Source: Thermoleophilia bacterium UBA6103
GTDB lineage: Bacteria > Actinomycetota > Thermoleophilia > UBA2241
DNA: 64,000 nucleotides
Reading direction: 5' to 3'
Assembly (NCBI GenBank): GCA_002423545.1
Contig: DIWP01000001.1
Coordinates: forward strand, 25,171 to 89,170
A program made the position numbers and the translations under genes. Below, piece after piece: positions 1 to 49,605 of the stretch; within the stretch, counting starts at the first letter, position 1; each line of letters begins with the position of its first letter. Below the pieces are notes generated by a model, which saw nothing but the letters and a program-made list of their open reading frames with translations, ran no database searches and had not been told where the DNA came from.

Positions 1-252
1 GTACTGCTCGACGGTGATCAGCGGGTGGTCGCTGAGCTCGAGGTTCTCGCCGTACGGACGCCCCTTCATGAACTGGCCGACATAGACACGCTTGCCGTGG
101 CCGGCGGCCCGCACCGCCAGACCGAAGGCGGCCGTGGTCTTTCCCTTCCCGTCACCTGTGTAGAGGTGGACGTACCCCCTTCCGGCGCTCTCGGTGGCGC
201 CGCGTCCCCCGGCCTCAGCGCCCGGTCGTGGTGATGTCCTGGTGTCGGTCAC
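1..252 (-). CDS. cobO: cob(I)yrinic acid a,c-diamide / corrinoid adenosyltransferase (CobO/BtuR), 5' part only; gene runs off the window edge
   Basis: Minus-strand translation gives ...GRGYVHLYTGDGKGKTTAAFGLAVRAAGHGKRVYVGQFMKGRPYGENLELSDHPLITVEQY, the P-loop signature of BtuR/CobO. Probable GTG start at 250-252, preceded by AGGAGG (RC of 256-261). Not in the ORF track because it is truncated. Confidence 0.6.
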   Translation of the reverse strand, partial: MTDTRTSPRPGAEAGGRGATESAGRGYVHLYTGDGKGKTTAAFGLAVRAAGHGKRVYVGQFMKGRPYGENLELSDHPLITVEQY

Positions 253-357
253 CGGTCCTCCTGTCGTGACAGGGTGGAGTGGGGTCGTCGTCAAGTCGGG
301 TAGCGTCACGTCGGTTCGCTGCCCGGCCGGCAGCCGCCGGCAGATCGTCGACCAGCA

Positions 358-1383
358 TCACAGCGGCAGCTTCTTGTTCTTGAGTCCCATCACGGCATAG
401 GACGTCGCCAGAAGGGGCGTGGCCGAGATGCGACCGAGATGGTAGAAGGAGCCGTTCCTCGCCTGCATGGTGCAGAGGTAGTACACGGGAGATTTGCCGC
501 CTCTGCGCCAGGCGGCTCCCGCCGGGTCTTGACCGGCTGCGACGATACCCTGGATCGCGAGGGCGCTCGACTCGAGCACGGAGCCGCCGAAGTCGTAGGC
601 GAAGCCGCCGTCGCGCTGCTGCTTGGCCTTCATGAACTTCAGTGCGCCGCGGATGACACCGGAGGAACTGCTCACGCCGCCGGCCCGCAGCGCCTGGATG
701 GCGGCGCCGGTGGAATCGACATCGGGGCTGCCACCCGGATTCCACGAGAAGCCGCCGCTGCTGTGCGCCTGCGTCCGCAGCCACTGCACCGCCCGGGAGC
801 GGGCGGCGGATGCGCGCCCGGCGGCTTTGAGGGCCAGGACGGCATAGGTGGTGGTGCTGATAGCAGCGTAGCTGCCCTTGCCGCCGGCCGCGGTGGTGAA
901 GCGGCCGCTGGCGGCATCCTGGTAGGCGAGCAGCTTGACGACGAGATCGACTCGCTTCCTGCCGGCGCGTCGGATCAGGCTGGTCTTGCGCGCCGCCTTG
1001 TAGGCGAGGATGTACTTGGAGTACGTCGCGGCGGGGTTCTTGGGCGTCGTGCCGTCGGCCAACCGCTCGATGTCGAGTCCCTGCATGTACTGGATCGGGG
1101 TCTTGCCGCCCGCGCGCCGCCACTTGGCGGGATCCTGTCCGGCAGCACGGACGGCCATGACCACCCAGGGCGTAGCGGCCGATTGGCTCATCCCCTTGGC
1201 GCTGAAGCCGCCGGACCTGGTCTGACGGCTCTTCAGGTACTTGAGGGCGTTCTTCACCGCCGTCGAGGTCGACGGCAAGGCGGTCGCGTCCGGGGGCGCG
1301 GCGGCGGCTGCGAGGGTCAGAGACAGGGCCGCGCCGATAGCTGCGCCACAGAGCATCAGTGCGACGAGGCGCTTTGTCAGCAT
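358..1383 (-). CDS. secreted prenyltransferase/squalene-oxidase-repeat (alpha/alpha-toroid) protein
   Basis: Real start is the internal ATG giving MLTKRLVALMLCGAAIGAALSLTLAAAAAP (signal peptide). Five repeats with Q..GGF/GSF motifs (SGGFSAKG, SGRFTTAAGG, SGGFSWNPGG, DGGFAYDFGG, NGSFYHLG), typical of PFTB/SQHop cyclase repeats. Overlaps the upstream S-component stop (ATGnnnTGA-type coupling). Confidence 0.75.
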   Translation of the reverse strand: MLTKRLVALMLCGAAIGAALSLTLAAAAAPPDATALPSTSTAVKNALKYLKSRQTRSGGFSAKGMSQSAATPWVVMAVRAAGQDPAKWRRAGGKTPIQYMQGLDIERLADGTTPKNPAATYSKYILAYKAARKTSLIRRAGRKRVDLVVKLLAYQDAASGRFTTAAGGKGSYAAISTTTYAVLALKAAGRASAARSRAVQWLRTQAHSSGGFSWNPGGSPDVDSTGAAIQALRAGGVSSSSGVIRGALKFMKAKQQRDGGFAYDFGGSVLESSALAIQGIVAAGQDPAGAAWRRGGKSPVYYLCTMQARNGSFYHLGRISATPLLATSYAVMGLKNKKLPL

Positions 1384-2264
1384 GTCGCCTCCTTGTTGTC
1401 GTTGACTGGATCGTCGAGGAGCCGCACCTGGGTGCGGGTGCGATAGCGGGTCACGATCTTCACGGCCTGGGGGCCGAAGAGGAGCGCGCAGAGCACGGTG
1501 GCGGCCACATGGGCGGCGTCGAAGAAAGCGCCCTGAGCGTAGAGCGCGATGAACGCCGGCCACGTGTGCGCAGAGAACGTGATGTACATCCACAGCGTCA
1601 TGAACCAGCCGAACGCCAGCGACAGGGCGCCACCGACGAGGGCCAGCTCGCAGCGACCGGGTCGCCGACCGTGCCGGCCCATGAGGCCGCCGGCGAAGCC
1701 GACGGCACCCCAGGCGACCATCTGCCAGGGTGTCCAGGGCCCTTGCCCGAAGAAGAAATTGGACACGAGCGCCGTGGTGGCTCCGATCATGAAGCCGGCG
1801 CTGGGTCCGAACCCGATGCCGCCCACCAGGACGATGAAGGTCACCGGCTTGAAGTTGGGCAGCGAGGCGAAGAGGATGCGGCCTGCCGTGGCGAGCGCGG
1901 CGACGGCGGCGACGATGGCGATCTCCTGGGCGGGCACGGCGCGCAGGCCGTAGAGGGCAACGCCCAGCGCCACCACCGCCGCCACGAGTCCGAACGACAC
2001 CGCCCCCCAGTTCACGCCGCCGGGGTCGATGATCGTCCAGACGATGAGACCGGCCACCGTGCAGGCGGCAGCGGCGACGACCATTACGCCGGCGGGCGAT
2101 CGGCCGGACCCGGTGACGCGCCATCGTGAGGCGAGCGATGGAGGAGACGCTGTGAGGGCGGCTGCGAGCGGGGTCGCCGCGGCGCCGGACGGACGGGGCA
2201 TCTGATCCGTGAGCGTCGGTTGTTCGACGTCGCGACACGACGGAGAAGCGGTCGCTGCCGTCAT
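1377..2264 (-). CDS. ECF transporter substrate-specific (S) component
   Basis: Multi-TM protein with LPNFKPVTFIVLVGGIGFGPSAGFMIGATTALVSNFFFGQGPWTPWQMVAWG, characteristic of ECF S components. Start uncertain: ATG at 2264 (MTAATASPS...) or ATG at 2201 (MPRPSG...). Confidence 0.65.
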   Translation of the reverse strand: MTAATASPSCRDVEQPTLTDQMPRPSGAAATPLAAALTASPPSLASRWRVTGSGRSPAGVMVVAAAACTVAGLIVWTIIDPGGVNWGAVSFGLVAAVVALGVALYGLRAVPAQEIAIVAAVAALATAGRILFASLPNFKPVTFIVLVGGIGFGPSAGFMIGATTALVSNFFFGQGPWTPWQMVAWGAVGFAGGLMGRHGRRPGRCELALVGGALSLAFGWFMTLWMYITFSAHTWPAFIALYAQGAFFDAAHVAATVLCALLFGPQAVKIVTRYRTRTQVRLLDDPVNDNKEATC

Positions 2265-2290
2265 GTCTGTGCCGTATGGCGTCACGCGGC

Positions 2291-4027
2291 TCACAGGGCG
2301 GTCCAGACGACGTCGTCTTCGGTGAGTGCGCCCGGCAGATCGCGACGCAGGAGCCGGTTGATCTGTGTCGAGAAGAAGAGCGAGCCGTGCAGCGCCTCTC
2401 GAACCGGCGCGTCGGCCAGTATGCCGCCGTCGCCGAGCACCACGACACGGTCGGCGGTACGGGCCGCGAACTCCACGTCGTGCGTGACCACCACGACGCA
2501 GCGGCCGGCGCCGGCCCAACGACGCAGAAGGGCGGCAAGGTCGTTCTTGTGCGCCGGGTCCATGCCCCGCGTCGGCTCGTCCAGCACCACGACCGCAGGA
2601 TCGCCGCAGGAGACGATGGCCAGCGCCACGCGTGTCCGTTCGCCGCCGGACAGGTCGCGGGGGTCGCGGCCGAGCAGCGCTCCGAGGTCCAGATCCGAGA
2701 CCAGCATCGACCTCGTCGCCTCGGCCTCGGCAGGCGGGATGCCCAGTGTCGAGAACGAGAAGTCGAGTTCATCGGCGACGCTGTCCCGCACGAAGTAGGC
2801 GCCCGGGTTCTGGCCGAGGAAAGCACAGGTGCGTGCCGCTTCGGCGACGGACATCGACGTCACCTCGGTACCGGTCAGGAGGACCTTGCCGGTGAGGGGC
2901 CTGGCCATGCCGTTGAAGTGACGGACGAGGGTCGACTTGCCGGCGCCGTTCTCTCCCATGATGGCCACCAGGTCACCCGGCCACAGCGCCAGGTCGACCT
3001 CGTCGAGGACGGGCCGATCCGGCGGGTAGCCGGCCGTGAGGCGCCGGACCTCCACCGCGGCCATCGGCCGGCGTCGGAACATCCCGCGAGAGGACGGGCC
3101 CGCACCCTCCGTCGTAACCGCGGCGCTCGCGCTCGCGGTCGGTCCCGGCTCTCGGGTGGCGGCGGAGGCGAGGACGTCCGATCCGGCGAGCGCCAGCCTG
3201 CGACGCGCGTCCTTGACGGTCATGGGAAGCGCGACCAGGTCCTCTGCGGAGGCCGCTCCGTTGAGCCGACCGGCGAACAGCCGCGCCACCGGCGGCAGCA
3301 GCTCGCGGCGTCCCCGGGCGGCCCAGGCGGCAAAGCTCTGGGGGTCGGTATCCTGCAGGATGGCCCCGTCCTCCATGTAGAGCACGCGCGTCGCCAGGTA
3401 GAGGCATCGCTCGATGCGGTGTTCGGCGAGCACGATGGTCGAACCGGTGTCTTCAGACAGGCGTCGGACGGCGGCGAGGAGGTCTTCGGAGCTGACCGGA
3501 TCGAGCTGGGACGTCGGTTCGTCGAGCAGCAGAAGCTGCGGCTGCATCGCCAGGACGGCGGCGAGGGCCACCTTCTGGAGCTCTCCGCCCGAGAGCGTGG
3601 CCAGCTCGGCATGCCGCAGCCGCGAGAGGCCGAGAGAGAGCAGTGACTCCTCGACGAGTCGCGAGATCGCCGGGCCCGCCAATCCCAGGTTCTCGAGGCC
3701 GAACGCCAGCTCGCGCTCCACGCTGACCATGACGGCCTGGTTCTCCGGATCCTGGAAGACCATGCCGACGTGTTCGGCGAGGTCCCGCGGGTCGGTGGTG
3801 CGGGTGTCGAGACCGGCGATCACCGCATGCCCGGAGAACGTACCGCCATGGAAGTGCGGGACCAGCCCGCACAGGGCGCGCAGGAGCGTCGACTTGCCGC
3901 TGCCGGACCCGCCGATCACAAGGACGACCTCCGCCGGTCGCAGGGCGAGCGTCGCGTCACGCAATGCCGGCGACTGCCTTTCCGGGTAGGTGTAGGTGAC
4001 GTGTTCGAGTCGGGCGACCGGTTCCAT
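2291..4027 (-). CDS. ecfA: ECF transporter ATPase, fused tandem EcfA1-EcfA2 (two ABC domains)
   Basis: Two Walker A motifs (GGSGSGKST, GENGAGKST), two ABC signatures (LSGGELQKVALA, LSGGERTRVALA) and two Walker B/D-loops (LLLLDEPTSQLD, VVVLDEPTRGMD). Start MEPVARLEHVTYTY at 4027 overlaps the EcfT stop (TGATG). Confidence 0.9.
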   Translation of the reverse strand: MEPVARLEHVTYTYPERQSPALRDATLALRPAEVVLVIGGSGSGKSTLLRALCGLVPHFHGGTFSGHAVIAGLDTRTTDPRDLAEHVGMVFQDPENQAVMVSVERELAFGLENLGLAGPAISRLVEESLLSLGLSRLRHAELATLSGGELQKVALAAVLAMQPQLLLLDEPTSQLDPVSSEDLLAAVRRLSEDTGSTIVLAEHRIERCLYLATRVLYMEDGAILQDTDPQSFAAWAARGRRELLPPVARLFAGRLNGAASAEDLVALPMTVKDARRRLALAGSDVLASAATREPGPTASASAAVTTEGAGPSSRGMFRRRPMAAVEVRRLTAGYPPDRPVLDEVDLALWPGDLVAIMGENGAGKSTLVRHFNGMARPLTGKVLLTGTEVTSMSVAEAARTCAFLGQNPGAYFVRDSVADELDFSFSTLGIPPAEAEATRSMLVSDLDLGALLGRDPRDLSGGERTRVALAIVSCGDPAVVVLDEPTRGMDPAHKNDLAALLRRWAGAGRCVVVVTHDVEFAARTADRVVVLGDGGILADAPVREALHGSLFFSTQINRLLRRDLPGALTEDDVVWTAL

Positions 4028-4923
4028 CACGGCTCTGCCGGCTGCAGGGGGGTACCGCCGGTGGGGCGCAGCAGCGCCGCGTCGTGGGCTCGCCGTCGGA
4101 TCGCCAGGCGCGTGTCGACGACGCCCGGCAGCACCAGGGTCGCTGCGACGAGCGCTGCGGCCGTGACGAGCCACGATGGGTCGCTCAGGTCCGGGAAGGG
4201 GTCGTCGGTGAGCGGGAAGTAGTTGAACGACGCGATCCCCGTCGCCAGTCCGGCAAGCACTGCGGCGACGGCGCCCGCGGCACAGAGCACGATGAGCACG
4301 TCGGCCGCCCGCCAGCGGCGGCCGCGGTGCCACGCCCGCCGGCCGGGACGTCCGTAGCCCCGCGCCTCCATCGACTCGGCGACGTCGGTGGCACGCTCCA
4401 GGCTGCGCGATATCAACGCTCCGAGGAGCGGTAGGCGTCGCGTCGCCTTCTGTCGCCAGCTGCCGCGATCGAGCTCCACGCCGCGCGCGCGCTGAGCGTC
4501 GGAGATCCGTGCCGCATCCCGTGAGAGCACCGGGAACATGCGTGTCGCCAGTGAGACCACCAGACCGGAACGGAACGACACGCGGCTCATGATCGCGAGC
4601 TGTTCGTCCTGGTCGAGCAGTGTGGTGTAGAGCGCGAAGGCGGCGACGACGGCGACCAGCCTGACCGCCATGCCGACGGCGAAGTAGATGCCCTGGATGG
4701 AGATGGCGATGTGCAGCGGCCCGAGCTCGGCCTGCCAGAGCACGTCGAGCCCCGCCTGGCTCACCAGAGGGTTGACGATGAACAGGAAGACGGTGATGTA
4801 GAGGCCGAAGCGGAGGTACGGCCAGGCGGCGCGTAGACGACGCGAGAGGACCAGGACGAGAAGGATGACAGCGAGGACGACGGCCACCTGGATGGGGTTG
4901 GCGATCACGATCGATGCCACCAT
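4027..4923 (-). CDS. ecfT: ECF transporter transmembrane (T) component (EcfT/CbiQ family)
   Basis: Start MVASIVIANPIQVAVVLAVILLV...; hydrophobic EcfT-like core with ...LDEQLAIMSRVSF...RGYG... Stop overlaps the ecfA start. Confidence 0.8.
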   Translation of the reverse strand: MVASIVIANPIQVAVVLAVILLVLVLSRRLRAAWPYLRFGLYITVFLFIVNPLVSQAGLDVLWQAELGPLHIAISIQGIYFAVGMAVRLVAVVAAFALYTTLLDQDEQLAIMSRVSFRSGLVVSLATRMFPVLSRDAARISDAQRARGVELDRGSWRQKATRRLPLLGALISRSLERATDVAESMEARGYGRPGRRAWHRGRRWRAADVLIVLCAAGAVAAVLAGLATGIASFNYFPLTDDPFPDLSDPSWLVTAAALVAATLVLPGVVDTRLAIRRRAHDAALLRPTGGTPLQPAEP

Positions 4924-5086
4924 GAGAGCGGCGATGCCGGCCAGAGCCGCCGCCGGCTGAGCCGCGGCCAGGCCGTGGGTGGGCGGTCGCCCTGCCCAGC
5001 GATCGCGACGGACACCGCCGGCTGCCGATCGGCCGCCGGGTCCGACCGCCGAGGATCGTCCCTGCTGTGCCGTGTCAGAGGGCACG

Positions 5087-6025
5087 TCAGTCTTCTCCGC
5101 CGGCCTGCTGTGGGAGGCGCACGAGCTCGTCGCCACGCAGGCCGATCGCCACGTAGGCGCCCGGTATCCCGTCGCCGAGTCGCTCGATGAGCGTGCCGAT
5201 GGCCCGTGCGTCGCGGCCGATGAAGACCAGCAGCGTCGCCTCGGCGTCCTCCGGGTGCGGCGCGCCGAGCACGGCCGCGTCGAGTTCGCCTCGCGGCGTG
5301 CCGGTGTAGTCCAGAGCCAGCAATGTCGGGCCGTCGATGGCGACGAAGATGCCGGCCTGTGCGCCGGGATCCAGCAACGCGGACAGCCATGTGTCCCCCT
5401 GCAGCTCCGCGACGGTCGCCACGACCAGCGACGGATCGGACGGCAAAGGCGAGAGCGGTCGCGCAGCATCGACCGTGAGTCCCTGTGCCGTAGCCCACGC
5501 CGCGACAGCGTCGGCCTCAGCGTCCGCAAGCAGCGCCAGTGAGCTGTCCTGCCAGGGCTGCGGGAAGGCCTGCAGCACCACCGGCATGAAGCCCGAGCCC
5601 TGCCAGGCGTGGTGGTCCCACCAGATCGTCTCACCGCCGGTCAGGCGCTGGTCGGCGGCGCCGACCTGCCCCATCCGGCCGGCGACCCAGTAGAACCAGT
5701 CGCGGGGCTCGCCGGTGGCGCCGAAGGTACTCTCGATGCCGTCGATGGCGTTCACGAAGCCACCACCGTAGGCTGTCTTGACCTCAGCCTGAGTGGCCAG
5801 GACCTCCATCACATCGGTCTCGTCCTCGAAGTCGACCAGGACGTCACGCAGGACGTCGGCACCGAAGCCCGTGGAGATCACGAGCCGGATCTTGTCGGCT
5901 GGGACTGCCGCGGCCGCGGGAGAGGCGTCGTCGCGGGCCGACGAGGCAGTGCTCGAGGTCCCGTCCTCCTCACTGCGGACGCCGGCGCAGCCGGTCACCG
6001 ACACGAGCAGCAGGCCAAAGACCAT
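5087..6025 (-). CDS. secreted lipoprotein, DUF4430-like (transcobalamin/intrinsic-factor beta-domain-like)
   Basis: Start MVFGLLLVSVTGCAG (lipobox VTGC). Contains DWFYWVAGRMGQVGAADQRLTGGETIWWDH, matching the W.Y.VNG....GA....GD.V.W DUF4430 pattern. DUF4430 assignment is from memory of that family, not a search. Confidence 0.65.
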   Translation of the reverse strand: MVFGLLLVSVTGCAGVRSEEDGTSSTASSARDDASPAAAAVPADKIRLVISTGFGADVLRDVLVDFEDETDVMEVLATQAEVKTAYGGGFVNAIDGIESTFGATGEPRDWFYWVAGRMGQVGAADQRLTGGETIWWDHHAWQGSGFMPVVLQAFPQPWQDSSLALLADAEADAVAAWATAQGLTVDAARPLSPLPSDPSLVVATVAELQGDTWLSALLDPGAQAGIFVAIDGPTLLALDYTGTPRGELDAAVLGAPHPEDAEATLLVFIGRDARAIGTLIERLGDGIPGAYVAIGLRGDELVRLPQQAGGED

Positions 6026-6287
6026 GACTATCCCCGGCAAAGCGGCCGCTGGGGCCACGGAGCCTGCGCCTTCACGCCGCCACTGCGGCGTGATGACGCG
6101 TCGTAGCCGGAGCTGTAGACTGCGCAGAGCAGCGCTCCAGGGGCGTGCGACGGGTGCGACCGCGGGAATCGGGGGGACTCGGTCGCTCACTCGCACGCCC
6201 CTGCAGCGTTGCTCTCGTGTGTTCGTCTGGTCTCCATCTCGACGCTCTTGACCCTTCAACAGGTCCGTCCTCTTGTGTTGGTGGGAG

Positions 6288-6330
6288 GCCGGCACCCGAC
6301 GGCCGTGAAGGGGACCGCCGGGTGCCGGCT
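6288..6330 (-). terminator. GC-rich hairpin just after the stop of the 6348-7493 gene (possible weak terminator or attenuator; no U-tract)
   Basis: Minus-strand GCCGGCACCCG-(20 nt)-CGGGUGCCGGC, 11-bp perfect stem, followed by CUCCCACCAACAC (not U-rich). Confidence 0.3.
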
Positions 6331-6347
6331 CATCGCAGGCCGTGCGA

Positions 6348-7493
6348 CTACTTGCGGACGCTGACGTTGTGCATCTTGACCGTCGAGACGCGGCCCCACT
6401 CGTCCCAGGCCTTCAGGTAGACCGTGACCCGCTTGCCGATCCGTTTGCCTGTCCTGCCCGTCCAGGTGAAGCCCTGCCGGCCGCCGCTTGCGTGGGTCCT
6501 CCAGCCGCGGGCGAGCGTCGTGCTGCCGCTCTTGATCCACCACTGGACGCGGGCGGCCTTGTTGATCTTGTACCGCACCGTCAGAGCACGATTGCGCCGG
6601 AACTTCTTCGGTGTGGCCGTCACGCCGCTGAACGCCGGCTTGCTGCCCACATTGACGATGACCGTGTCGGAGCGTGCGTACACGGTGCCGTCCATGGCCT
6701 TCTCGGCCCAGACGTAGTACGTGCCGTTGCCGAGGTTCGGCAGGTCAAGCCGCTTGTTGGAGCGACTGGCCTTGAACCTGACCTTGGCGCCCGCCAGCTT
6801 GAGGCCCTTGGAGCGCGAGCCGGTCAGGACGCTGGCCCGGTTACCGACGTAGACGGTCGCGCCGGACACCTCGGGGAACTGGTCCGGCGTCTGGATCATG
6901 CTCGGATCGCTGATGCCGAAACGGGTGGCGTCGGCCTGGCTGTTGACCTTGGCCAGGTCGTCACCCTTGATCGTCAGGTCCAATGCCTGTCCCGGTGTCA
7001 GGGCGCGCACCGGCGAGCCGTCGATGACGAGCAGCGTGCTCGGCTTCGAGAACGTGTTGTCGGGGTTCTGGAACCAGAGGTAGTCGTCATCGGCGACGCT
7101 CGGCAGGTTGGCGGCTCCCAAAGGCGAGCTATAGCCGTTGACGGCGAACGACCACCAGTCCGCGTAGGTCACCGGGTCCATAGCCTGGCGGGAGAACCAG
7201 CCGACGAACGGCCCCATACCGAAGACATCGAAGTCCCAGGTGACGCCGGCCATCTCGGTGGCAAGGGCGGTCGCTCCGAAGGCCGTGGCCTCCGTCGAGG
7301 TGTACTCGGTCCCCTCGCTGTCGTAGTAGGTCCCGCCTCCGGCGGCTTCCTCGACCCACGTCTGCGGCAGGGCGGTGAAGCCCTTGGCCTCGACTCTGAC
7401 GCTGGTCTCGACGGCGAGCGCCGCCGGGGCGGCGAGGAGCACGGTCAACAGGACGAGCCCCAACGCCAGTGGCACGGACATCCGCTTCTTCAC
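6348..7493 (-). CDS. secreted two-domain protein: N-terminal DUF4430-like domain + C-terminal Ig-like (FlgD-Ig-like) basic domain
   Basis: GTG start (MKKRMSVPLALGLVLLTVLLAAPAALA signal peptide) preceded by AAAGGAGGA RBS. Contains WWSFAVNGYSSPLGAANLPSVADDDYLWF (DUF4430-like). C-terminal K/R-rich beta-rich domain. First gene after the B12 riboswitch. Confidence 0.7.
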   Translation of the reverse strand: MKKRMSVPLALGLVLLTVLLAAPAALAVETSVRVEAKGFTALPQTWVEEAAGGGTYYDSEGTEYTSTEATAFGATALATEMAGVTWDFDVFGMGPFVGWFSRQAMDPVTYADWWSFAVNGYSSPLGAANLPSVADDDYLWFQNPDNTFSKPSTLLVIDGSPVRALTPGQALDLTIKGDDLAKVNSQADATRFGISDPSMIQTPDQFPEVSGATVYVGNRASVLTGSRSKGLKLAGAKVRFKASRSNKRLDLPNLGNGTYYVWAEKAMDGTVYARSDTVIVNVGSKPAFSGVTATPKKFRRNRALTVRYKINKAARVQWWIKSGSTTLARGWRTHASGGRQGFTWTGRTGKRIGKRVTVYLKAWDEWGRVSTVKMHNVSVRK

Positions 7494-7544: not shown

Positions 7545-7583
7545 CCGAAGAAAAGGACCCCGTCGCTTCCGCTACGGGGTCCG
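7545..7583 (-). terminator. intrinsic terminator / riboswitch expression platform
   Basis: Minus-strand GGACCCCGU-agcggaagcg-ACGGGGUCC (9-bp perfect stem) followed by UUUUCUUC. Located between the B12 box and the RBS/GTG of the 7493 gene. Confidence 0.7.
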
Positions 7584-7639
7584 GCAAGGCTCGAAACGAA
7601 CAGAGCCCCCATCCGCGTGGGAAGCAGCTTCACGTAAGC

Positions 7640-7812
7640 GGCTCGCTCGGTTTTCTGACTTCCGGTCGATTGCCTGGCCGTCGCTGCCTTCCCGGGCCTC
7701 TGCCCAGTGGCTCTCCTAAAGGAGACCGCGACGGTCGCGACCGGTCACAGCGGCGGGACCGTGCCGGAGTTGCACCGACTTCCCGTTGGGCGCTACAGCC
7801 GCGCGCCATCGG
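7640..7812 (-). ncRNA. cobalamin (B12) riboswitch
   Basis: Minus-strand RNA reads ...GUAGCGCCcaacGGGAAgucGGUGcaAcUCCggcaCGGUCCCGCCGCUGUGAccgg ... GCCACUGggcagaggcccGGGAAGGCagcgacggccaggcaaucgACCGGAAGUCAGAAAACCgaGC. This matches the conserved core (GGGAA..GGUG.A.UCC...CGGUCCCGCC.CUGU.A), the GCCACUG element and a B12-box-like AGUCAGaaaACC. It lies directly upstream of the ECF/DUF4430 operon. Confidence 0.75.
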
Positions 7813-7918
7813 TAGATGAACGAGTGCATGCTAGCGCAGCGAGCAGGGTGTGTCCAGTGGGAGATTTTCTCGTCTCAGCGGGATGCTGCGGTGATGAGCG
7901 GGGCGGTCGCTGCGCCGG

Positions 7919-8419
7919 CTACTTGGGCAGCTCTTCCCGAACGTCCCAGAGGACGTCTCCGCTGCGGTAGTCGAGCATGGCGATGATCAGGTCCTGGCCG
8001 CTGCGGCGCACAGTGCCCTCGATCTGCCAGACGAAGCGGAAGGGCGGCACGATCGTGGCCGCCTGATCGAGATCGGCGGGAAGGCCGGTGAGGTCGGCAC
8101 CATCGGGCAGCGGCTCGAAGGTGTGGGCAGCGCCCGGACTCAGGTAGAGCAGCCGGGCCGCCACGACCTCGAAGTCACTGCCGCGGAACAGCTGATCGGC
8201 CTCCTGGTACGCGGCGCCGGAGGTCTTCAGACGCGAGTCGCCGGGGACGGTGAGGCCTGCCACCAGGAACCGCCAGCTCCGCCACGGATGCGTGAGGAAG
8301 CTCGCGTTCTGACTCCCGGCAGTGTACCGATACGCCACGAGCGAGGGCAGATAGAAGACGACCAGCGCCGCGACGAGCGCCACCAGCGCCCAGAACAGCT
8401 TCGATCTGCCTCTCAGCAT
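7919..8419 (-). CDS. hypothetical membrane-anchored protein
   Basis: ORF with N-terminal TM helix (LFWALVALVAALVVFYLPSLV) and good GC3. Immediately downstream of the MBL hydrolase gene. Confidence 0.45.
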   Translation of the reverse strand: MLRGRSKLFWALVALVAALVVFYLPSLVAYRYTAGSQNASFLTHPWRSWRFLVAGLTVPGDSRLKTSGAAYQEADQLFRGSDFEVVAARLLYLSPGAAHTFEPLPDGADLTGLPADLDQAATIVPPFRFVWQIEGTVRRSGQDLIIAMLDYRSGDVLWDVREELPK

Positions 8420-47656: not shown

Positions 47657-49605
47657 GTGTCCGGCTGGCCGCCCTCGAACGCTGGACCCCCGGCGCACTG
47701 AGCCGGCGCACGCTCGACGAGCTCACAGAGCGGGTGGCGGGCGCATTCGGCGTGCCGCCGCCGGCATGGCCGTCCCGTCGCATGGAAGCGCGCCTGGAGG
47801 AGTTCGCGCGCTTCACGGCGACCGCCGCCGGCTGTACCCGGGAGACTACGGCCGGGGCGACGGCCGGACGCCTGCGGCTGGCAGCCTGTGGGCTCGGCGC
47901 CGATCTGCGCCGTCGGTTGGGCGTGCGGAGTCCGGACGAGGCGCGGCGGGCGCTCCAGCTGCTCTATCGCGAGCTCGGCATCGCGCTGCGCGCCGGGGCC
48001 GACGGGACAGTGACCGTGAGTCGCTGCCGGTTCAGTCGCCACTACTCGCCGGGAGCCTGCCGGCTCATGTGCGCCGTCGACGAGGGGATCGCCGCCGGGC
48101 TCACCGGCGGATGGCGGCTCAGCTTCGACGACCGTCTCACGGAGGGCGCCGCCGCCTGCCGCGGACGTCTGGAGCCACCGCTCCCGGACGCGCACGAGCT
48201 CACCGTTCCGCCGCCCGAGCCCGTCGCAGAACAGCCGATGCCGGGCGGTCCGCCGCCGGCTTCGCGCGCTCGGCGGGGCAGGCCGGTGCGCGCTGTGGTC
48301 GTGGGCAGCGGCGCCGGCGGCGCCACCATGGCTCGCGAGCTCGCCGGGCTCGACGGCGTGCAGGTCACGGTGCTCGAGGCCGGCCGGCGCTTCCGCCCGT
48401 TCACGCTGGACCGTGAGCCGCTGGAACGCGTGCGGTCCAGCGGCCTCTTCTTCGACGAGCGGCTGATCACGGCGCTGTTTCCGGCGATGCGGGTGCAGCG
48501 CGCCGCCGACGGACTGGTGCTGGTCCGCGGCGTGGCTACCGGTGGTACCACGACGCTGGCGACCGGGAACGCGATGCGGCTCGATGCCGGCTTGTCGACC
48601 CTCGGGATCGATCTCACTTCCGAGTACCGGGCGCTGGAGACGGAGCTGGGTGTCACATCGGCCCATCGGGGACGCTGGCGGCCGAGCACTCAGGTCCTCT
48701 GGGACGCCTGTCGACAGGCCGGCCTCGCTCCGCAGCCGACGCCCAAGATGGTCGACTACCGCCGATGCGTGCGCTGCGGTCGCTGCGTGCTCGGCTGCCG
48801 GACCGGGGCGCGCTGGGATGCGCGACGCTTCCTCGACGACGCGTTGGCGCGTGGCGCCACCGTGCTCACCGGAGCGCGGGTGGAGCGGCTGCAGCCGGCC
48901 GGCGACCGCAGCGGCCGGGCCGGCGGTGTCCTCGTGCGCCGGCACGGCCGTCGCGAGCTGGTGTCGGCCGATGTCATCGTGCTGGCGGCCGGTGGTCTGG
49001 GCACGCCCGCCATCCTGGCGCGGTCGGGCGTCGCCACGGAGAACCGCCTGTTCGTCGACCCGGTCCTGTGCGTCGCCGGGCCGTGGCCCGGCGCCGATCA
49101 GGACCGTGAGGTCCCGATGCCGTTCGTCGTCGAGCTCGAGGGCAGCATCGTCTCGCCGTACTTCGATCACCTCAGCTTCTTCTTCGATCGGCGCTGGCGG
49201 CGAGAAGCGTCCGGCCTCGCGTCGCTGATGATCAAGCTGGCGGACAGCGAGGTGGGCGATGTCGGTCGCGGCTCAGTGGCCCGCGGCGGCGTCCGCAAGG
49301 CTCTCACGCCGCGCGATCGCCGACGCCTGAAGGTCGCCGTCGATGCCTGCCGGGATGTCCTCGCGATCGCCGGTATCCCGCCTGAAGAGACCTTTCTCGG
49401 TACCCTGAACGCCGGTCACCCCGGCGGTATGGTGCCACTCACCTCGGAGTCCGTAGCGACCATGCACCCGCGGTCGCTGCCGGCGAACGTGTTCGTCGCC
49501 GACGCCTCACTGCTCCCCGAGTCATTGGGAGCGGCCCCGATGCTGACCATCATGGCGCTGGCCCGTCGCCTGGCCGGGGTGCTGCGCGAGCGCGATGTCG
49601 TCTGA
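47653..49605 (+). CDS. two-domain flavoprotein: N-terminal Cys-containing (V4R-like?) domain + GMC-type FAD oxidoreductase
   Basis: ATGA overlap with the rSAM stop. N-domain ~180 aa with CRFSRHYSPGACRLMCAVDEG. Then VVVGSGAGGATMARELAG (FAD GxGxxG), YRRCVRCGRCVLGCRTGARWDA and C-terminal GTLNAGHPGGMVPL (GMC-like). The V4R assignment is tentative. Confidence 0.7.
   Translation: MSVRLAALERWTPGALSRRTLDELTERVAGAFGVPPPAWPSRRMEARLEEFARFTATAAGCTRETTAGATAGRLRLAACGLGADLRRRLGVRSPDEARRALQLLYRELGIALRAGADGTVTVSRCRFSRHYSPGACRLMCAVDEGIAAGLTGGWRLSFDDRLTEGAAACRGRLEPPLPDAHELTVPPPEPVAEQPMPGGPPPASRARRGRPVRAVVVGSGAGGATMARELAGLDGVQVTVLEAGRRFRPFTLDREPLERVRSSGLFFDERLITALFPAMRVQRAADGLVLVRGVATGGTTTLATGNAMRLDAGLSTLGIDLTSEYRALETELGVTSAHRGRWRPSTQVLWDACRQAGLAPQPTPKMVDYRRCVRCGRCVLGCRTGARWDARRFLDDALARGATVLTGARVERLQPAGDRSGRAGGVLVRRHGRRELVSADVIVLAAGGLGTPAILARSGVATENRLFVDPVLCVAGPWPGADQDREVPMPFVVELEGSIVSPYFDHLSFFFDRRWRREASGLASLMIKLADSEVGDVGRGSVARGGVRKALTPRDRRRLKVAVDACRDVLAIAGIPPEETFLGTLNAGHPGGMVPLTSESVATMHPRSLPANVFVADASLLPESLGAAPMLTIMALARRLAGVLRERDVV

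Follow-up and report, generated by a model that had tools for sequence, protein, structure and literature searches.

Cobalamin riboswitches ahead of vitamin B12 and cobalt transporters are well documented (PMC3766115), and regulated terminators are the standard transcriptional platform of riboswitches, predicted to be dominant in Firmicutes and a minority elsewhere (PMC2258182). In the metE riboswitch of Priestia megaterium, a repressing corrinoid riboswitch dissected by compensatory mutation, L5 C-C-G kisses L13 C-G-G and thereby stabilises the small hairpin P13 (PMC10327014). On the transport side, PDB entry 6FNP is the energy-coupling factor (ECF) complex ECF-CbrT of Lactobacillus delbrueckii, a vitamin B12 transporter that imports cobalamin and cobinamide (PMC5997447). 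Here we describe a cobalamin riboswitch and the operon that follows it in a 64,000-nt stretch of DNA from Thermoleophilia bacterium UBA6103 (contig DIWP01000001.1, positions 25,171–89,170), hereafter the window, whose first letter is position 1. We propose, with moderate confidence, that this riboswitch is the OFF switch of a B12-uptake operon and works mainly through regulated intrinsic termination.

Aptamer, hairpin and U-rich tail

Scanning the window with cmscan returned a single Rfam family at or above its gathering score, RF00174 (Cobalamin), at 7820–7628 on the minus strand (75.5 bits, the gathering score being 31.5; E 8.4e-17; match to model positions 1–189 of 189). The element is a genuine cobalamin riboswitch aptamer on that strand, as a previous sequence-only reading of the locus had held, and RF00174 also lies directly upstream at every locus with upstream DNA at which a homologue of the first gene of the operon (gene 1) comes first. 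That reading had confined the riboswitch and its expression platform to 7545–7812 and left the strand unstated; the element does lie there, but the aptamer runs 8 nt past 7812, and the ribosome-binding site (RBS) and the GTG start codon fall outside. A plus-strand reading was rejected, as the hairpin there is preceded by an A-run with no T after it and the plus-strand open reading frames (ORFs) across the region are artefacts of high G+C (~69% in the window).

Read from the minus strand, helix P1 pairs GCGGCU (7802–7797) with AGCCGC (7643–7638), L5 reads UCCCG (7758–7754), a large P6 extension occupies ~7737–7671 and the B12-box region ~7662–7645. An RNAalifold consensus of 51 related leaders, described below, recovered P1 and P3–P6, with several pairs of the P6 extension present as multiple pair types. 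The P2 hairpin columns are mostly deleted and of low posterior probability in the model alignment of the window, with 11 nt between P1 and P3 on the 5' side. A large P6 extension is a mark of the adenosylcobalamin-binding Cbl-I class (PMC7367189), from which we infer that the ligand is probably adenosylcobalamin; with the P2 arm almost absent in the window, this selectivity is deduced from architecture only. Within the P6 extension, the hairpin UCUCC-UUUA-GGAGA (7725–7712, minus strand) places an RBS-like sequence beside its exact complement and covaries, with CCCC/GGGG in some relatives; no link between this hairpin and the real RBS could be shown.

The aptamer is followed by a hairpin of the kind expected of an intrinsic terminator, GGACCCCGU-AGCGGAAGCG-ACGGGGUCC (7582–7555, minus strand; −21.3 kcal/mol), whose GC stem begins 55 nt past the end of P1 (7638 to 7582). 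Nine outer base pairs join GGACCCCGU (7582–7574) to ACGGGGUCC (7563–7555), and the 10-nt loop holds two further pairs (inner GC/GC) and a GGAA tetraloop. Directly 3' of the stem stands the U-rich tail UUUUCUUC (7554–7547), and the leader closes with the RBS AAAGGAGGA (7505–7497) and the GTG start codon of gene 1 (7493–7491); the RBS motif CCGGAAAGGAG is kept in related leaders. The earlier description of a 9-bp GC stem and U tract some 55 nt past the aptamer, then a strong RBS and a GTG start, is borne out on the minus strand.

A consensus terminator scan reported no terminator at this hairpin because it permits loops of at most 8 nt. A looser custom scan gave 26 hairpins with a T-rich octamer across both strands of the window. 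Just two of these are compact, the 7582–7555 hairpin among them, and in no other do four U follow the stem immediately. With 26 such candidates in the window the hairpin is by itself only suggestive, and it is its conservation in relatives that raises it above chance. The other compact GC hairpin with a T-rich tail, TCTTCTTC, lies at ~48418–48453 on the plus strand (28 nt, −19.1 kcal/mol) and is possibly an ordinary terminator.

The gene 1 protein has only 31 homologues in a large protein collection, and all of these are unnamed. Relatives of the leader were gathered in three ways. Scanning genomes with a 12-sequence protein alignment gave 8 loci, all in metagenome-assembled genomes of Thermoleophilia or Actinomycetota, look-ups of single homologues gave 14 further loci, and 50 more came from a metagenome scan whose pattern linked the L5 region with the small hairpin that follows P1. 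After removal of duplicates, the alignment (A3) held 51 distinct leaders, from the transcript-start region to the start codon, of which 12 were chosen by protein homology and 39 by the search pattern, which includes P13. Three loci were left out, in which a cobalamin riboswitch with a different platform lies ~7 kb upstream of the gene 1 homologue (L004:775–974, L005:1077–1278 and L008:902–1075), reflecting either an altered gene order in the cluster or a separate operon.

The GC hairpin is kept in 49 of the 51 leaders, and 6 of its 10 pairs show two-sided, compensatory changes; at one of them, 20 leaders have U-A and 19 have C-G. Across the platform helices of A3, 92.5% of cells are standard pairs, compared with 32–51% when the 3' partners are slid by 1–3 columns, and 12 platform pairs carry changes on both sides, a value reached by 2 of 500 shuffles. 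The tails are U-rich throughout the family: at least five U occur in the 9 nt past the stem in 28 of 50 leaders, three or four in 17 and at most two in 5, so that 45 of 50 have at least three, against an expectation of 1.4 U. At the background frequency of U in the window (15.4%), at least five U of 9 has a probability of 0.006 per site. [quoted passage not shown] In one leader (L020) a terminator equivalent is not clear. Two others (L016:998–1284 and L017) carry, relative to L019:334–663, a natural 43-nt deletion that takes the hairpin, its tail and the segment just 3' of the tail (A', below); they keep the P13 hairpin and precede an intact orthologue.

Two metagenome contigs (L032:1–576 and L052) are 91–96% identical to window positions 8069–7495, from inside an upstream 166-aa gene through the entire leader. 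The identity stops ~2 nt before the start codon and the sequences diverge beyond it, the first ORFs there being, by eye, CbiM-like (VHIMEGYLP...) and CbiN-like in place of the 381-aa gene 1 protein; the same leader therefore stands before another cargo, and the two parts meet at the start codon.

Upstream of the aptamer, a consensus scan found one promoter-like site, against 0.0 expected in shuffles: TGGACA (7856–7851), a 17-nt spacer and TAGCAT (7833–7828), minus strand. A transcript start at ~7821 is predicted from this site. A TANNNT hexamer lies 23–29 nt upstream of helix P0, described below, in 43 of the 51 related leaders.

P13, long-range helices and the mode of control

Under regulated termination, transcription would start near 7821 from the promoter-like site, and the aptamer (7820–7628) would bind a corrinoid, probably adenosylcobalamin. 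In the bound state, L5 CCG (7756–7754) would kiss CGG (7615–7613) in the P13 loop and lock the weak, 4-bp P13; the G-run on the 3' side of P13 would then be unavailable, the GC hairpin at 7582–7555 would form and RNA polymerase would terminate in the UUUUCUUC tail. Without ligand, P13 would open, the terminator would fail and transcription would enter the operon.

The P13-like hairpin, CCCA-CGCGGA-UGGG (7621–7608, minus strand), begins 15 nt past P1 and by itself folds with −3.4 kcal/mol. Its loop CGG is complementary to L5 CCG and is the candidate kissing partner of L5. The hairpin (CCCA-CGNGGA-UGGG) does not vary among the 12 leaders that were selected through protein homology, whereas its constancy in the other 39 is uninformative because P13 belongs to the search pattern. 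L5 UCCCG is likewise invariant. At the middle base of the P13 loop, 29 leaders have C, 21 have U and one has A, so that 50 of 51 retain a possible pair with the L5 G. The terminator loop was also considered as a partner of L5 and set aside, since its sequences vary and offer no consistent complement to UCCCG, and the invariant P13 loop was preferred. Between P13 and the terminator lies a variable hairpin, GGCUC-(10 nt)-GAGCC (7607–7588, minus strand), and related leaders have a hairpin of other sequence at this position.

An antiterminator would use the same strands. [quoted passage not shown] A fold of this type recurs in most clades.

RNAalifold on the full leaders brought out two additional long-range helices. 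In the first, A:A', segment A (CGUGAAGCUGCUU, 7634–7622, minus strand), just 5' of P13, pairs with segment A' (GGGCAGCUUCGCG, 7546–7534), just 3' of the U tail, and the helix thus encloses the whole stretch from P13 through the variable hairpin to the terminator. It comprises 12 pairs, with 93% of cells paired and two-sided changes at 4 pairs; most leaders have GCGAAGCUGC / GCAGCUUCGC, and L002 has GCGAUGCCGA / UCGGCGUCGU. In the second, P0, the 5' strand UGGCGC (7808–7803, minus strand) is contiguous with the 5' strand of P1 and pairs with GCGCCG (7512–7507), which ends 4 nt upstream of the core GGAGG (7502–7498) and shares one nt with the purine run GGAAAGGAGG, namely the first G of that run. 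Here 94% of cells are paired and one pair has a two-sided change, from C-G to U-A (GGUGC / GCACC in L040 and L060). Because both 3' strands lie downstream of the terminator, A:A' and P0 can exist only in read-through RNA. In our reading the two helices loop the termination module out and dock the segment near the RBS against the P1 base; they could add translational control or could just organise the leader through folding or stability. A pairing of the CUUCC next to segment A with the RBS, in which the GGAAG of the terminator loop would mimic the RBS, was considered and is no more than an idea, as there is no clean covariation with the RBS; L002 and L019 have neither motif.

Several observations weigh against control mainly by termination. 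For riboswitches outside Firmicutes, control of translation is the mode mostly predicted (PMC2258182); five of the 50 tails have at most two U in 9 nt; and the two deletion leaders, without the terminator and A', still have the aptamer, P0 and the RBS. There is next to no variation in P13, L5 and the terminator C-run, and no covariation is seen for the kissing loop or the antiterminator; for 39 of the 51 leaders, moreover, P13 belonged to the search pattern. When the terminator 5' half and loop were paired with the upstream A/P13 region and compared with 60 dinucleotide shuffles per leader, the gain did not exceed that of the shuffled terminator halves (mean z −0.3; window +0.39). For lack of this excess we do not present a specific antiterminator as demonstrated, and both it and the kissing loop are plausible by analogy with metE. 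A:A', P0 and the terminator deletion further suggest that termination may not be the whole mechanism. It is possible, though we would put it forward only tentatively, that control is dual and nested: termination would proceed as proposed, while in the full-length mRNA A:A' would loop out the P13/terminator module and P0 would prolong ligand-stabilised P1 as far as 4 nt from the Shine-Dalgarno core, such that bound B12 would also lower the translation of read-through messages. The compensatory changes in both helices (L002 for A:A'; L040 and L060 for P0), the contiguity of P0 and P1 on the 5' strand (7808–7797) and the retention of P0 and RBS in the deletion leaders are in keeping with this, as is L051, a riboswitch of the same lineage before a different gene, which has GGCGCG / CGCGCC at the P0 places. 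Modules that are separable and portable would account for the deletion and for the reuse of the leader before a cbiM-like gene in a close relative. PMC10018353 describes a riboswitch that stands apart from its RBS yet regulates translation. The RBS itself, however, is unpaired in the consensus fold of the 51 leaders, and when duplex energies were computed in sliding windows over these leaders, no conserved anti-RBS segment emerged, the peaks being unspecific ones on the G-runs and the U-rich tail, which by their composition could pair with purine- or C-rich sequence of any kind; P0, moreover, counts a single compensatory event, and both helices could serve only folding, stability or insulation.

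Control by translation alone, with a GC hairpin that is structural, a U-rich tail that is incidental and B12 acting on ribosome access, appears unlikely to us. The predominance of translational control outside Firmicutes, the few relatives whose tails are not U-rich, the failure to find a specific antiterminator and the reach of the conserved helices to the RBS would all suit it, but the family-wide enrichment of U past the hairpin and the four U adjoining the stem in the window speak against it, and no RBS-sequestering helix was found. Lastly, the hairpin may be a processing or stability site, or termination may depend on the factor Rho. Terminators of actinobacteria often have poor U tails, and Rho-dependent control reportedly features in a Mycobacterium tuberculosis study of atypical B12 riboswitches and the translation of upstream ORFs; the hairpin and U tail of the window are canonical, though, and nothing in its sequence calls for Rho, which makes this explanation very improbable. 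Regulated intrinsic termination is accordingly the reading we retain, and actual termination at the hairpin is what we infer from its conservation and its tails.

The downstream operon and predicted B12 import

The leader precedes six genes on the minus strand. Gene 1 (7493–6348, GTG start at 7493) encodes a secreted 381-aa protein with a signal peptide, an N-terminal DUF4430-like domain and immunoglobulin-like (Ig-like) domains. The protein itself has no Pfam match; 15 of 26 family members match PF14478 (DUF4430) and 10 match an Ig-like domain. Its AlphaFold2 model is mostly beta (mean predicted confidence, pLDDT, 86.9), and a Foldseek search of the model against the PDB returned generic Ig-like matches only, which are uninformative on B12 binding. 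The family of 31 proteins is seen only in metagenomes and metagenome-assembled genomes. We consider the gene 1 protein a candidate extracellular B12 binder.

Gene 2 (6058–5087, start at 6058 or 6025) encodes a DUF4430 lipoprotein (PF14478, E 2e-10), gene 3 (5085–4027) an ECF T component of the CbiQ family (PF02361, E 1.7e-23) and gene 4 (4029–2291) a fused double ATP-binding cassette (ABC) ATPase corresponding to the ECF A components (two ABC_tran stretches, PF00005, E 8.5e-52). Gene 5 (2285–1377) encodes an ECF S component homologous to CbrT, the B12-specific subunit (PF12822; PDB 6FNP chain A, E 7.8e-12), and gene 6 (1383–358), the last of the cluster, a secreted alpha/alpha-toroid protein with prenyltransferase/squalene-cyclase-like repeats. 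Genes 2–6 abut or overlap, and no promoter-like site was found in 200–6500. The match of the S component to CbrT supports B12 import, in line with the sequence-only reading that the organism imports the vitamin, and the operon is a supported prediction of a B12-uptake system. Among the 30 large ORFs of the window that were scanned there are no B12 synthesis genes, and the window says nothing on B12 synthesis by the organism.

Genes 1 and 2 are separated by a spacer of ~300 nt (6347–6059) with no Rfam match. Directly past the stop codon of gene 1 it holds a 19-bp GC hairpin (6330–6284, minus strand) with no U tail, and the segment that contains it (6347–6270) folds with −44.8 kcal/mol; this hairpin may determine how strongly gene 1 is expressed relative to the transporter genes.

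DUF4430 is found at the C-terminus of vertebrate transcobalamins (PMC4350170). Two of the secreted proteins encoded here, those of genes 1 and 2, are of DUF4430 type, and a third is an alpha/alpha-toroid. Transcobalamin combines an alpha6-alpha6 barrel with a small DUF4430-type domain, and the DUF4430 proteins and separate alpha/alpha-toroid protein of the operon may therefore be a split analogue of it, which we offer as a lead only.

Comparison with known systems

The riboswitch class, regulated terminators and the control of B12 transporters by B12 are all textbook matter, and the finding is in this respect largely ordinary. It does mark an unannotated operon in an uncultured member of the Thermoleophilia as a predicted B12-uptake system, one that combines a CbrT-like ECF transporter with secreted DUF4430-type proteins. 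Since microbial communities are shaped by the exchange of B12, the annotation of a B12-uptake operon has value. The 51 distinct leaders also allow a cobalamin riboswitch of terminator type to be compared across an actinobacterial lineage of high G+C, in which one would usually expect translational control, and A:A' and P0 give a testable lead on whether one aptamer may control both transcription and translation.

With the Cbl-I-like riboswitches of RF00174 the window shares a match over the full length of the model, the four-way junction P3–P6, the B12 box, a C-rich L5, a large covarying P6 extension and a location ahead of a B12 transport operon, in its 5' leader. It differs in the near absence of the P2 arm, where the relatives L040, L053 and L072 have an insertion.

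The transporter has in common with ECF-CbrT (6FNP) a CbrT-homologous S component, EcfT (CbiQ) and ABC ATPases. Unlike that system, the operon of the window has its own dedicated energising module, with the two ATPases fused, and also encodes three secreted proteins, two of DUF4430 type and one alpha/alpha-toroid; the transporter of the window is known from sequence matches alone.

[quoted passage not shown] Both leaders have the same order of elements, from the aptamer through a short P13 and a spacer to a terminator with a U tail; in both, an L5 CCG faces an L13 CGG; and in both the calculated antiterminator is more stable than P13 alone, the ordering that the metE model needs. The window comes from another phylum, with high G+C, its RNA is known from sequence alone, and its antiterminator complementarity does not rise above shuffled controls. 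It also has the A:A' bracket and P0 next to the RBS, neither of which is described in the passages of PMC10327014 compared here; within the literature compared, these two helices are the only feature of the locus without a counterpart.

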